A DNA stretch of 64,000 bases from the NCBI GenBank assembly GCA_008632985.1, contig QPGO01000008.1:600979-664978 (forward strand), in the 5' to 3' direction. Source of the stretch: Psammoneis japonica. Its lineage: Eukaryota. Both the position numbers and the translations under genes were made by a program. Below the pieces are notes generated by a model. It worked only from the letters and a program-made list of their open reading frames with translations, ran no database searches and was not told the DNA's origin. Below, one piece after another: positions 4,100 through 34,589 of the stretch (the first letter of the stretch is position 1; the number at the start of each line of letters is the position of its first letter).

Positions 4100-5300
4100 T
4101 CTCCAGTGCAACAATCCAACACAATGACAGAAGCATGGCCCCAAATGCCATTGTTCCCCACCTTTCCCAGTTTGCAGTTTTGCCAAGACTCTGCAAGATC
4201 TGCTCACCAAGCCAGTTTTCTGTGATCTTTCAAAGTTGCAGGCAAATCCAAACAATCAATGTTTGGTCACCTTGTGAGCTGCCTCCTTTTGACAGTGATT
4301 TAGATCCTGATGCTGCCCATCAGGGTGGCAACATTTGGTTTCCACAGTGTCCTGGTGACTGGCAATTGTTGACTCAAAGTCAAGACATGGGAGATGGAGA
4401 GTGGCTGCAACATTGTTCCAATGCTCAGGAATCTGTGCCCAATTTCCAGCATCACCTTGTCAATTGTTCTGACAAGACTGGAGTCAATGCAGTCAATCAA
4501 GCCTCTCATGTGCTCACTTGCAATTGCTCAAGAACATGCTTGTCATGATTGTTGTTGCTGGTGTCCTTTTGGTTTCATTCCGAATGTGGACAAGAAGGAC
4601 AAGTCTGGGCACCTTGTTGTTGCCAATTGTTGCCTCATTCTAAAGTCAGTTCTTTGTGGACTGTTTCATTGCCAGGCCAATGCACCCATTGTCATGCAAT
4701 CATTGGAGCAGAGCACTGGCCTGTCAGAACCACAGTGCACTGCAATTCCCTGTTGGGTGACATCCTCAATCAAGAACAAATTTGTGGCAGAGTCATGAGC
4801 CAAAGCAAGACCGAGCAACTGTCTCACAACTGCCATGTGCCCTCATCCCTTTCAGACAATCAAGATCCCCTTCATGTGCTTGCAAGTTCTTTCACCAAGC
4901 TTTGTCAAGTTGCTTGTTCCATCTGATTTGGGACCAGACCCCAAGGACGACAACAGAAGCCGGTGTTGGCATCAGTTGTTGAAGCATGTTTCAACAAAGC
5001 ACCATGCAATGACCACACAGAAAAGGGAGAGAAGGAGCTTTCTTCCCTCTGTTGGCACATGAAAATGTGTGCCAAAATGCCAAGGAAAGTGTTTGGACAG
5101 CATGCAGTTGACAATGCTCATCAATGAAACTGAAAGTGCTGTTGGGCCGACTGCCAAACAGGGGTGGGTGGCCCAAAACCTTGGCACCAAAGTAAAAACA
5201 ACTCTCCCTCCATGTGATTGTGCGCCACCGCCAGCAACATGACCAAATTGATGCTTGGTCTCAGGCATGTGATGGCAGCAATTGCAGCAGTTCACTGCAA
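4100..5300 (+). mobile_element. Degenerate Plavaka-like DNA transposase relic (frameshifted, hypermutated)
   Basis: Ordered fragments SFAKTLQDLL..NPNN, GEW, SDKTG, IKPLMCSLAI..WCPFGFIPN, LKSVLCGL..Q, LLGDILNQEQICGR..LSHNC..SDN resemble recalled Plavaka transposase motifs (DKT, LEPxMFTL, WRPLGFIP, IGDxxxxDKLCGR, LCRxC). Confidence 0.55.
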
Positions 5301-10851: not shown

Positions 10852-11823
10852 GCAAGGGGGAAGCAACCCGTTTTAGGTGGAGCATACAGAAGCGAGGTTC
10901 TGAGTTCTGACGGAGGCGAAAGGCAAGTAAGAGTGTATCATGTGGTACTTCAAAGTTTTCCTACGGTAAATACTTCCGTCCTCCCAATGATTCAAAATGA
11001 CAAACCGAGAGGCGTCAACTGTAGCAGCTTTGACCTCCTTCCCAACGGTCGGGGAGTTCTTGGAAGGAACTGCTGTGGTTGGGATTGATTTTAATGTCAA
11101 CAGGAACTTTTGCTTTCTTTGGTATAGATGGGCAATGTATTCTCATCTCTTGGCACGGGAATCTCCACAATGTGGTTGGTCTCTTGAGATTCGGAAGTGT
11201 CGTATATGGCGCCAGTTGCCCATCCATACGGAGCTACTTGGCGTCGCTGTTGCAGCTGTTCGTTTATTCTTCTCTCTTGGCACTCTGTCACAAGGGGGGG
11301 TTTAACGGCAGGTGAACTCGCGTCGATGGCTTTGCGTGTTCTTTGGGTAATTGTGAGGCTGTACACTCCTCCGTTGGCACTGGGAACTCCACATTTGTGG
11401 TTGGTCTCTTGTCAGTAGTGTAGAATACGGCGTTCAGCTGCTATTGAGGGGAAGCTTTGTTTTTGTTGCCGTCGATTTCGACTATTCCTTGGACTCCAAC
11501 AATTGAACGTCGACCTTTGGTTGCCGTTTCCTTTGTAGGAATCTTGGATGAGCTGATGGTCGCAATGGATTATGAGATATGAGGGAGGATGGAAGAGTAC
11601 TGACATAGTACGAGTACCTGTAACTTCACGGCGTAATCCTTTGACTCACGCTTTCTGTTTGTCTCGTTTCTTGTGTTCACGATAGGAGCCACGCAACGAC
11701 GATGCTTGCTAAGACATTCTTTAGTACACTACTACTGCTTGGAAACGACGTACGCTAAACATTTGGAAAAGGTCGTTATATGAAACAATAGACTACTAAT
11801 ACACTCTAATAGTGAAGGGCGTC

Positions 11824-13561
11824 TTATGTGCATCCCTCTTCGTTGGGAGTCTTGAAGTCACGCATGTGAATCCTGTAGGTGGAGAAGAATGAAAAAGATT
11901 GTAAGAGAAGGATTATCACCGAGACGTCTTGAAAAAGGATTGGTACTTCATACTACTCACCATGCATTTGCGCCATACTGGACGTGGAGAAGAATGAAAA
12001 AGATTGTAAGAGAAGGATATCACCGAGACGCCTTGAAAAAGGATTTGTACTTCATACTACTCACCTTGACGCCTTTAATTACCGGCTTCGCTTCTGCAAC
12101 GAGGCATGAAAAATGATGTAAACAATGAGAACAATCATCACGAGCTCTTGAAATAGGCCTTGCACCACAAACTTACCGTGAATTGTTCGACCGTCCTTTT
12201 TGTCCGGATCTTCATCGAGAACACTTGGCCAAATGACGGCTCTACCGCGCTTGGGGGTCACCGTCATGCCAAGCATGGGGAATTCAGTGCCACCGCCTTC
12301 CTCGACGTCATTCAAATCTAAAGTAGACAAGAAAGGGAAGCGAGTTAGCTTGCTATTGAGAAGTCTCGGCGGACACACCGATTCCATATTCCATACTTAC
12401 AAATATAAACGGTAAGTAGTCGAACTCCGCTTTGGCGATCGAGCTGGTGTGGAATGTAGTCACTGTGGGTATGGTAATACTGGTTTTCTTCGTACTTGAG
12501 CATTTGCAAGTACTCGGAGTTGAGTTCAGGGATACCTGTGAGGTTGGAGATCCTGTCCATGACATTCCTTGCCAATGGATCCTTGTAGCATTCGTTTTGA
12601 CACCACGAGTTCATTGAAGTACGCCCGTTGTTCACAAAGTTGTCGTAAGTTCCATCGAACTTGCGCTCTCCCACATCAGAACTCCTCTCGTATCCCTCCT
12701 CGGCACCCAACTCAATGAGCCTTTCGCACTCTTCCGGAGTAGCGAATTCCTCAAACATGACTGCCCATGGACCAATATGGTAATCATCCTCGGCCTCTTC
12801 TTGTCTCTCCACCTGACCAGCTGCTGACTCTTCGTCTTTATGGGGCGCGGCCCTTGGCGAAAGACAATTCTTGTCCGGTTCAGGTCGAGAGAGAATCTTT
12901 GGCTTGAACTGTTTGTACTCCTCGTTGGTGACGATACGTTCAAACATGCGGTTCAAATCGCCTGGCTTCCAAACGTTTTGTTCTCGAATGGCGTCCTTAT
13001 CCAATGGACAACGGCTCTCAAACATCAACTTGTCGCAAGACTGGCACGAAGGGGCACAGTTGACCACCATGTAAGCGGGGTTATTTGTACACTCCCCTAG
13101 CAAGGCCCAAAAGGCGCAGTCCTCGTGTTGGTTCTTGCAGTGAGTCTTGATTTCTGTGTACTTTGGCTCGGTATACACAACGTCCCTCATATAAGCCATT
13201 GACTTGTCAATCCACGCCTGTATCTCGTCAGCGCGTGCTCCAACGACATTCTGTGGAACTCCGAGATCAATCGCACTTTACAGTATTGTTGCATACGGGG
13301 GGCGTGCATGATGTGGGTGAGGAAAAAACGAAAACAGCAGGGGAGGTCGAAGCACTCAAAGTAAACTTACACCGAGTCCTCCTGTTTGACGCTTCGAACT
13401 TCTTGTCCTAAACTTGGAGCGGCTTGCTGTAGAAGACATTCTCCATCGCTGTTAGTCTGACATTCTCCGTCGCTTTTGCTGCTGTTCAATCCGAGAACGA
13501 CACTCGCAAGAACAACGGAAATTGCAACAATGAAGTTACGGGGCTTTATGGATGAAAACAT
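11824..13561 (-). CDS. Secreted/ER ShKT-domain prolyl 4-hydroxylase (P4H paralogue 1), 6 exons
   Basis: Signal peptide MFSSIKPRNFIVAISVVLASVVLG; ShKT CKNQHEDCAFWA..ECTNNPAYMVVNCAPSCQSC; 2OG-Fe(II) motifs RTS, HSDY, YLNDVEEGGGT, H-E, KYGANAW; C-terminus IHMRDFKTPNEEGCT*. Introns include 11873-11960, 11978-12064 and 12094-12176. Confidence 0.9.
11873..12064 (-). repeat. Two near-identical adjacent introns (88 and 87 nt) flanking a 17-nt exon
   Basis: 11873-11960 and 11978-12064 differ by 4 substitutions and 1 indel. Both are GTGAGT...CAG on the minus strand. Exon 11961-11977 encodes YGANA(W). Confidence 0.9.
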
Positions 13562-32811: not shown

Positions 32812-34589
32812 TTATTGACAATTATTTTCACTCGGGGTTTTGAAGTCCTTCTGGTGCAACTGTTTCATGAAAAGCGGGCAAAGCGTGAGACATATGGCCT
32901 GCAAGAGACCTTTTTTACAAATCTAGTAGAGAAGTCGTAAACTCACCCACTGGGCAGTGATACGAAAGTTTAATTTGTGAGTGACTGAGTGAGTGACTGA
33001 GTGAGAAACTGAGTGAGTGACTTACAGCATTTGCACCAAATTTCACGCCCTTTTCGACAGGTAAAGCGGCGTGGTAAGTCCGACCGTCTTTACGATTCGG
33101 GTGGCTGTCCAACACGCTAGGCCACAACAGAGCTCTTCCACGTTTTGGTGTAACTGTGAGTTTCAGATTCGTAAACTGCGTTGCTCCTCCTGCTTCAACA
33201 TCGTTCAAGTACAAAAACACCGTAATGGTTCTGACCCCACTCTGCCGGTTGACCTGGTATGGTATGTAGTCATGATGCATCTGGTAGAACTCGTTTACCT
33301 TTATTGCCGTCGTTCGGCGGGCAATGGTTACGGATAAGAAAGACTGCATTTCTAACACTTCCACCAACCAGAGCCAGACTCACCTCATATTTCAACAACT
33401 GAAGATATTCAGAGTTACGTTCCTCGATACCAGTTAGATTAGCGATTTTCTCCATGACAGTCTTTGCAACGGGGTCTTCGTAACATGTGTGTTGACACCA
33501 GGCATTCTTGGAGGTGCGGCCATCATTGACATTGCTTTCAGTCGTCCCGTCAAATTTCATCTTGCCCACATCAGCACTTCGCTCGTATCCCTCTTCTGCA
33601 CCAAGCTCAATCAATTTGTCACATTGTTCTGGAGTAAGGAAATCATCAAGAACAACAACCCACGGCCCGTCTATCGGCGCGCTTTCGTCGTCAGCTTCGT
33701 TATTCGACTTGAATTTTAGCAAGCTTTTGATCCGATCGGTAATACCCTTCTTCTTCTTCTTCTCGTCAGTATTCTGTACTGGTTCCTTGCCTTTTGGTAC
33801 TTTACTCTTTGCAGGCTTGGATAGAATCTGTGGATTATACTTTTCGTATTCTTTGTCTGTCACAATCCGCATAAACATTTTGTTCACGTCACCTGGCTTC
33901 AACGCATCAGGTGGCAAATCATCCATCGGACATCTGGTCTCGTAGTCAATCAAATCACACGTCTGACAAGAGGGGGCGCACTGGAGCTGCATGAAGTTAG
34001 GGTTTTTCTCACACTCGCCGATAAGTGCCCAGAAAGAACAGTCGACGTGACGGTTCTTGCAATGCCGCATTACTCTCTTGTACTTTGAATTCACCATAAC
34101 CTCCGTTCGCATGTAGTCAATAGTTTTCTCCAGAATAGCTCGAATCTCGTAAGCACGCGGACCAGCGAGCTTCTGCTTTTCACCTAAATCAAACTCAAGG
34201 TCATCCTCAATACTAGGAAGCACAATCCTATCAGAAAAGTCACATCATGCAGCGTGTCAAAACTGAGAGAACGAAGCACGAAACATACTTTCACGGCTAA
34301 TTCTTCGGGCGACTTACATGTTCTCGCAAGCGTTGCACGATTTACGGCAATTGTGCAACATATAATTGGGATTGGCCTCGCACTCGCCTTTACGGGCCCA
34401 GAATTGACATTCCTGATGCTCATCCTCGCACGATACTGCTGCACCTTCGGCGTTGTTGTCCGTGCAAGTGCCGTCATCAGCCGAGCAAGTTTTCGCATCC
34501 ACCCCGCCACTTTCTACGACCGATACTGTGTCACTACTAGCAACCAGAATGAGATTCAGAAGGACGATTAATAGCGAGATTCTCTTCAT
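32812..34589 (-). CDS. ShKT-domain prolyl 4-hydroxylase (P4H paralogue 3) with a predicted 3-nt micro-exon
   Basis: MKRISLLIVLLNLILVASS; two ShKT domains; GRTS, HHDY, FLYLNDVEAGGAT, HAALPV, KFGANA|W|LHQKDFKTPSENNCQ*. Confidence 0.9.

Follow-up and report, generated by a model that had tools for sequence, protein, structure and literature searches.

Sequence comparison indicates that one intron of a prolyl 4-hydroxylase gene, P1, stands at three consecutive sites of that gene and also, in a sister gene, at the site corresponding to one of them, and that at least one of the two near-identical introns A and B of P1 was gained by copying its neighbor, a reading to which we assign a probability of about 0.9. 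All coordinates refer to the window, which is the whole 64,000-nt stretch of DNA that was analyzed, and all features of P1 and its paralogues P2, P3 and P4 are read on its minus strand.

P1 (11824..13561; start codon inferred, first intron unplaced) encodes an ShK-domain prolyl 4-hydroxylase (2OG-Fe(II)) with a Pfam match to ShK (PF01549). Its relatives in a protein search, which covered the longer relatives, carry PF13640 together with PF01549; among them are proteins from Mayamaea and Epithemia with 40-41% identity, and on this evidence the host organism appears diatom-like. The spliced C-terminal part (287 aa) has an open reading frame, and the 3' end of the gene runs exon, intron D, exon, intron C, 29-nt exon, intron A, 17-nt exon, intron B, last exon. 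Intron D (12318..12400, 83 nt; bridged by none of the X2 contigs described below) is the next intron upstream of C, falls outside the family and served as an internal negative control. Intron C (12094..12176, 83 nt) lies in phase 1 at the position H|E and is followed by the 29-nt exon (12065..12093; E-A-K-P-V-I-K-G-V-K), intron A (11978..12064, 87 nt; phase 0, K|Y, a position found in P1 only), the 17-nt micro-exon (11961..11977; Y-G-A-N-A and two bases of W), intron B (11873..11960, 88 nt; phase 2 within the Trp codon, TG|G) and the last coding exon, which comprises the G of Trp, IHMRDF...CT and the stop (11824..11872). Skipping of the micro-exon causes a frameshift and retention of A or B an early stop; either event wrecks the P1 C-terminus, and both introns must therefore be spliced. 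We take the K-Y-G-x-N-x-W strand encoded here to have an active-site role.

A and B are alike from GT to AG at 83 of 88 columns of a global alignment (94%), differing by four substitutions and one 1-nt indel. Their exon flanks are unduplicated, with 20-nt flanks agreeing at 7 positions upstream and 3 downstream and local flank scores of 5 and 6, whereas in the segmental repeat L029 most pairs score 24-34. The preliminary description of the window had reported this near-identity, the unduplicated flanks and the two different phases (K|Y phase 0, TG|G phase 2), and in each respect it was accurate, its coordinates and the 17-nt exon as spacer included. The pair scores 1.77, far above the 99.99th percentile (0.525) of a null of 60,000 random candidate-intron pairs, so that the likeness is not due to chance. 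In length (87 and 88 nt, with a median of 89 nt for 68 heuristic introns) and in folding energy (z of -0.42 and +0.71) both introns are ordinary.

The presence of two true copies was checked in the assembly graph of run X1, which is possibly the assembly's own source and thus checks the assembly rather than representing an independent strain. A single-copy unitig of depth 71 bridges both copies (11884-12013), and the collapsed 35-mer common to A and B has a depth of 130, versus 56-59 in the flanks, which speaks for two true copies and against the assembly duplication considered at the outset. Splicing was read from X2, available as assembled contigs only and with a library type labelled 'DNA?', a guess; we infer that X2 is RNA from four splice-type joints absent in X1. 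Record 9 of X2 (depth 26.4) joins 12065 to 11873 via the exact letters of the 17-nt exon, removing A and B and confirming both junctions; it also removes 12094-12176 (intron C) and contains the piece 12065-12093, the 29-nt exon. An unspliced piece has a depth of 3.07. Given the five A/B differences, the bridging unitig, the doubled depth of the shared k-mer and the spliced X2 contig, the chance that the pair is an assembly artefact is negligible. Over 2.6 kb, the sole other letter in X1 is C>T at 11651, and variation at this locus is thus slight in X1.

The gain had initially been described as caught in the act. The copying keeps the probability given above; the immediacy does not stand, as five differences have accumulated and no joint skipping A or B was found in the assembly graph of X1, whose contigs drop rare variants and are thus silent on species-wide fixation or rare alleles. 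A/B is a young copy and not an ongoing event, with a rough age of ~5e7 generations (1.3e7-1.2e8) calculated from four substitutions in 87 nt using the mutation rate of another species, a diatom (PMC12130899).

Intron C is an older homologue of A and B, sharing 66-67% identity with them (z of 4.6-5.3, p <= 4e-4 versus dinucleotide shuffles with splice motifs trimmed). Its scores of 0.58 and 0.61 beat all unrelated pairs among 937 intron-like control pairs, and the two control pairs scoring above it both come from one duplicated gene. Intron D showed no kinship to C, A or B (z of 0.0-1.2, a score reached by 582 of the 937 control pairs). The fourth member, recognized by sequence only, is the 78-nt H|E intron of P2 (31031..31108), at the site homologous to C; it is 80% identical to C (E of 9e-11) and is C's only other match outside itself genome-wide. 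The initial picture of two copies was therefore correct as to A and B and had missed C and the P2 intron. When C and the P2 intron were used to polarize the A/B differences, two changes fell on A and one on B and two were unalignable, giving no direction.

The three P1 paralogues lie at ~30.9-36.1 kb in the window, P2 being 19 kb from P1. Of 63 four-fold sites compared between P1 and P2, 53 differ (84%); the two genes share 56% protein identity and, in the exon adjoining the H|E intron, differ at 8 of 9 third positions. Younger paralogue pairs with introns at the same position combine 14% four-fold difference with 80% intron identity, and 24% with 70%. An intron identity of 80% despite saturated four-fold sites means that the C/P2 likeness arose long after the gene duplication and does not extend beyond the intron, and the pair probably represents a transfer between paralogues. 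The alternative that is left is selection acting on the intron sequence; no codon pattern (by eye in the alignment), fold or Rfam family was found in support of it. The H|E position occurs in P1 and in 1 of 20 other readable gene tails, and with P1-P4 forming a polytomy, gain and overwrite look alike at this site. The P2 H|E intron has a length that is a multiple of 3 and no in-frame stop, and its retention adds 26 mostly hydrophobic residues.

Several further candidates for relationship were considered. The W| intron of P2 (30893..30983; TGG|, phase 0) has no detectable kinship to the family (z of 0.7-2.1, with 95 of 937 control pairs as high) and was rejected, as was L082, which scores 0.68 against C but matches C only, has no reading frame and was the best of thousands of comparisons. 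Two readings of A as carrying a scar of its birth, either by tandem duplication or as a target-site duplication, were also set aside. They drew on 18 nt within A that resemble the end of the exon upstream of it together with the donor (15/18, p of 2e-4 versus shuffles for a comparison picked by eye) and on the last 7 nt of A, which resemble the exon end (6/7). Both stretches also align with C and with the P2 intron and are thus largely inherited. The W| intron of P4 (35003..35091; TGG|, phase 0, read from sequence) resembles the E|A introns of L009, L012 and L013 with z of 3.2-4.5 versus shuffles and with 2, 18 and 9 of the 937 control pairs as high, a borderline result that is possibly the trace of an older cross-position copy. 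In P3, two predicted introns (32950-33025 and 32860-32946, together 32860..33025) flank a predicted 3-nt exon, TGG, which is the conserved Trp; the 76-nt intron is rich in TCAC repeats and the other is the W| intron, and the two are mutually unrelated (z of about -1).

An introner-like element, one of the origins originally proposed, is very improbable. Genome searches with A gave two BLAST-level matches, both in P1, and with C two matches, in P1/P2, all counts being lower bounds; the check for further copies by BLASTn that had been suggested thus found none beyond P1/P2. A pattern built from the four introns found those four only in 91.4 Mb and nothing in the control, a result that is circular for the four themselves, and a profile search of the fetched DNA gave no further match at E < 0.2. 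The family introns have no stable fold, being no better than shuffles, and no Rfam match; terminal inverted repeats were absent, with 6, 6 and 2 of 15 positions matching, and lengths are ordinary. Candidate target-site duplications amount at most to AG at K|Y and to G at TG|G, letters that the splice consensus calls for in any case. What can be said for such an element is that four related introns exist, that their target sites share C-A-x-G ends and that the AG at K|Y is readable as a 2-nt target duplication. The published criterion is at least four copies in different paralogy groups, mostly with transposon ends or stable folds (PMC12130899). Related introns at unrelated exon sites are a likeness to introners (PMC12130899, PMC3609843); the P1/P2 family, however, lacks copies in multiple paralogy groups, transposon ends and a stable fold.

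A search of the genome itself that took the preceding exon as query found 24 P4H-like loci. Tails were readable in 20 of the 23 loci other than P1 (L018, L023 and L024 being unreadable), and among these 20 the K|Y and TG|G positions occur in none, TGG| in 4 and H|E in 1. As had been stated, paralogues 2-4 are without the K|Y intron and have their Trp intron after the whole codon (TGG|). Of 190 metagenome relatives the best 80 were read; the tail is intronless in 75 of them, interrupted by an intron elsewhere in 4 and unclear in 1. The K|Y, TG|G, TGG| and H|E positions were found in 0 of these 80, a set in which contigs without introns and contigs derived from mRNA are overrepresented. A protein tree was built with 18 of the 24 loci, leaving out L018, L020, L023, L024, L025 and L026 as duplicate, broken or distant; it leaves P1-P4 as a polytomy and thus does not name the sister of P1, and it places L016, which has TGG|, on a branch outside that polytomy (support 90/88). 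The occurrence of TGG| in this outer branch makes the position probably old. The TGG| position of the four paralogues is 1 nt away from intron B, which is either the old TGG| intron after a one-base shift or a newly inserted intron next to one that was lost; we regard these as about equally likely. The most economical history would make B the shifted W| intron and the source of the upstream copies; a history in which W| was lost and a new insertion arose at TG^G would be about as likely. In the last 35 codons of the family (L003-L026, 21 readable tails), intron positions are very labile, those occurring being H|E in phase 1, E|A in phases 0 and 1, K|Y, A|W, TG|G and W|. L019, L020 and L024, as well as the C29 and C183 MATE rows, are identical or near-identical gene copies across contigs, maybe duplications or haplotigs, and the L024 copy carries a frameshift.

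Other intron pairs were sought in 86 pieces totaling 880,032 nt (800 kb of contigs C1-C8, five HIRAN loci and the window) using a detector for introns of 62-135 nt, spaced by at most 600 nt, with a branch motif required. This yielded 9,470 candidate introns and 11,112 near pairs, of which 155 overlapping pairs exceeded the 99.99th percentile of the null; 24 of those keep the frame open, and they are found in the window, L029, L036, L088, L054 and L083. The pairs of L029, L036 and L088 have duplicated flanks, L029 and L036 being exon-plus-intron repeats, and the blind 800 kb contained 0 new exact twin introns, which loosely bounds the rate at < ~4 per Mb. A RAD5/SNF2-like gene (L115, 5582-5860, minus strand; G000:C175) has twin introns of 73 and 79 nt with exact GT..AG ends around a 127-nt exon, and its frame is open after splicing. 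Same-gene intron copying thus seems to recur in this genome and to be rare. In L054 (4369-4586, minus strand; G000:C3), two introns surround a 3-nt exon with the frame open, only their 3' 66 nt being alike (89%); the 5' part of the second intron resembles the upstream exon end by eye, which suggests an exon-plus-intron tandem duplication that was later intronized. L083 (reverse complement, 4433-4696) consists of near-tandem purine-rich segments of 118-130 nt with GT..AG ends and unlike flanks; these are probably non-coding and probably no introns. No twin around an 8-nt exon was found in 10 stretches near MATE matches, out of 39 matches listed. A local repeat survey of the same 880 kb gave 182 direct matches (55 of them tandem) and 12 inverted ones, mainly tandem and coding repeats.

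From the sequences, a whole GT-to-AG unit appears to have been copied at least three times over short distances, the event that links H|E with the ancestor of A and B being apparently the oldest (66%), that between the P1 and P2 H|E sites intermediate (80%) and that between K|Y and TG|G the youngest (94%). As the source of these copies we put forward short-patch DNA-templated copying combined with selection, to which we give even odds. A broken or stalled nascent strand would end at an exon motif C-A-x-G, switch to a nearby template at a similar C-A-x-G|GT junction, copy the intron and return via the terminal AG or G, a microhomology of 1-2 nt. With the patch lying in the conserved K-Y-G-x-N-x-W strand, selection would keep only copies whose ends fall on splice sites; since only splice-exact copies leave the protein intact, the apparent precision would be made by selection. 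With the paralogue 19 kb away as template, the same process would give the intron-limited P1/P2 exchange. All four family sites end in C-A-x-G, and the donor and target flanks agree at 6/10 (C/A), 5/10 (A/B) and 5/10 (RAD5-like pair) positions versus a mean of 2.6, with a combined p of 0.004, or of 0.022 if C/B (4/10) replaces C/A, for a flank interval picked post hoc and a null of 68 heuristic, unvalidated introns. The exons of 29 and 17 nt and the survival of all neighboring introns make a cDNA tract a poor fit and favor a DNA patch. The existence of inexact intron duplications at the DNA level (L054, L029, L036) and the lack of copies in unrelated genes were also counted in its favor, and the copy at the homologous P2 site argues for homology guidance beyond what reverse splicing alone would give. 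Counting against a DNA patch are the exact ends of every full copy, the RAD5-like pair included, which would come free from the spliceosome; the exact microhomology of just 1-2 nt; and the 1-nt offset of B from W|, which it does not explain in one step. The 880-kb repeat survey did not demonstrate a frequent occurrence of non-tandem patches of 80 nt in non-coding DNA. A further point against is that reverse splicing at R-loops also predicts local, short-patch, exact copies, according to PMC4540971.

That RNA route, in which a lariat is reverse-spliced into the same transcript or into R-loop DNA and then fixed by reverse transcription or by RNA-templated short-patch repair, is possible and, in our estimate, somewhat unlikely. 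It accounts directly for the exact GT..AG ends and sense orientation of A/B, C and the RAD5-like pair and for the confinement of copies to one transcription unit; one reverse-splicing step would also yield the 1-nt shift of B (PMC5587772), and the R-loop model predicts insertions close together (PMC4540971). Sense orientation is forced by selection under every model, however, and the exact sense GT-AG unit that is indeed present at the formerly intron-less K|Y site is for the same reason undiagnostic. The family introns have no special fold to hold a lariat in the spliceosome, and the route alone provides no targeting to the homologous P2 site. According to PMC3443670, the cDNA route deletes introns inside the recombination tract. 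The neighbor-intron loss expected of a 'complete' cDNA route is absent, as C, A and B persist, so that a very short 'partial' tract or the R-loop route would fit; a cDNA version would have to recombine within 17 and 29 nt and yet keep the source intron. Tandem duplication of an intron together with its micro-exon, followed by exact deletion of one exon copy, is improbable. Tandem repeats are frequent here (55 of 182 direct local matches), L054 resembles an exon-plus-intron duplication whose exon part turned into intron, and with 24 P4H-like loci a frameshifted intermediate could have survived through redundancy. There is no trace of a second exon copy, however, in keeping with the earlier judgment that this is not a simple tandem duplication (comparison of the intron interior with the spliced exons gave p of 0.06 for A and 0.17 for B), and an exact deletion of 17 nt would be required for A/B, another for C and one of 127 nt for the RAD5-like pair, with the P2 copy left unexplained.

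Concerted evolution alone, in which the positions are old and neighbors were overwritten by gene conversion with no gain, has little probability as an account of the whole. The position 1 nt away from B is common to 4 of 20 paralogues, L016 on the outermost close branch being one of them, and most homologous introns of one fungal study were at pre-existing positions (PMC3443670); overwriting may be the right account of B and of the H|E pair of P1 and P2. For A it meets the difficulty that K|Y occurs in 0 of 20 paralogue tails and in 0 of 80 metagenome relatives (best 80 of 190, with the bias named above). Beside these accounts stands the doubtful proposal of a recurrent, junction-guided, short-range 'homing' of introns as exact GT-AG units without exon co-conversion. 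If true, it would move units by a few to ~130 bases and to homologous sites of long-diverged paralogues, with no more than a few bases at the junction as guide. New introns and micro-exons would then arise steadily and without transposons, and the P4H gene would have seen three rounds of the process. The four exact-ended members, the RAD5-like pair and the flank matches above background allow this proposal, and the 0 new exact twins in the blind 800 kb say that such homing is not frequent.

Comparable cases are the near-identical introns that Collemare et al. (2013, PMC3609843) described in fungi as same-gene duplications (SGD); there, the non-segmental half of 82 SGD introns was ascribed to transposition within a transcript or to transfer between paralogues. 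A/B resembles these in its near-identity, unduplicated flanks and ordinary length and folding energy, and it is a non-segmental same-gene intron duplication in every feature tested. The present case differs in that it is found in a diatom, comprises three introns in a row, of two ages, with exons of 17 and 29 nt between them, has splicing observed (in X2, probably RNA) and has a fourth member in a paralogue, at the site homologous to C. Yenerall and Zhou (2012, PMC3443670) list 14 intron transposition events in their Table 1, among them cases in Oikopleura and Mycosphaerella, which are alike in that the new intron is homologous to an existing one, occupies a new position and has exact ends; those cases are read as reverse splicing, whereas a DNA patch accounts at least as well for the short exons of P1 and for the copy in the paralogue. 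The same table lists 3 paralogue intron transfers (Mycosphaerella, Aspergillus and Chironomus), in which, as for C/P2, the same intron sequence is found at the homologous site of two paralogues. C/P2 differs from these in its intron-limited tract, with third positions differing on both sides and 56% protein identity between the genes, and in its co-occurrence with same-gene copying of the same intron. B, 1 nt from the W| of the paralogues, is likewise comparable to 1-nt intron shifts and near-intron pairs (PMC5587772 and PMC2891723); no stwintron intermediate was seen at P1. In Fusarium and Cryptococcus gattii, PMC3514964 reports that no such intron homology was found, which fits with rarity. 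Among the matches listed from the literature searched, which included few subscription papers and no supplements, there were no same-gene intron twins in diatoms and no three-intron series.

How new spliceosomal introns arise is not settled, and a source intron can be named in only a few cases (PMC3443670). The P1 locus provides a source, splicing evidence, three events of differing age and exons so short that they limit the possible mechanisms, and it shows one route to micro-exons. Together with the other twins of the genome, it forms a small natural panel in which the predictions of DNA-patch copying and reverse splicing differ and can be counted. The A/B pair alone is ordinary for its class; the series of introns and the intron-limited exchange with a paralogue are the unusual part.

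The gene downstream of P1, on the plus strand, encodes a ubiquitin C-terminal hydrolase (PF01088) with a probable 763-nt GC-AG intron in its 3' UTR (10923-11685). In record 8 of X2 (depth 97), 23 loose letters match 10894-10916 and the match resumes near 11686. The contig of this record (to 11713) and the P4H contig (from 11684) overlap by ~30 nt, from which the convergent hydrolase and P4H transcripts probably overlap. Inside the long UTR intron, 11138-11411 contains short direct repeats of 19 nt (three copies) and 16 nt (two copies).
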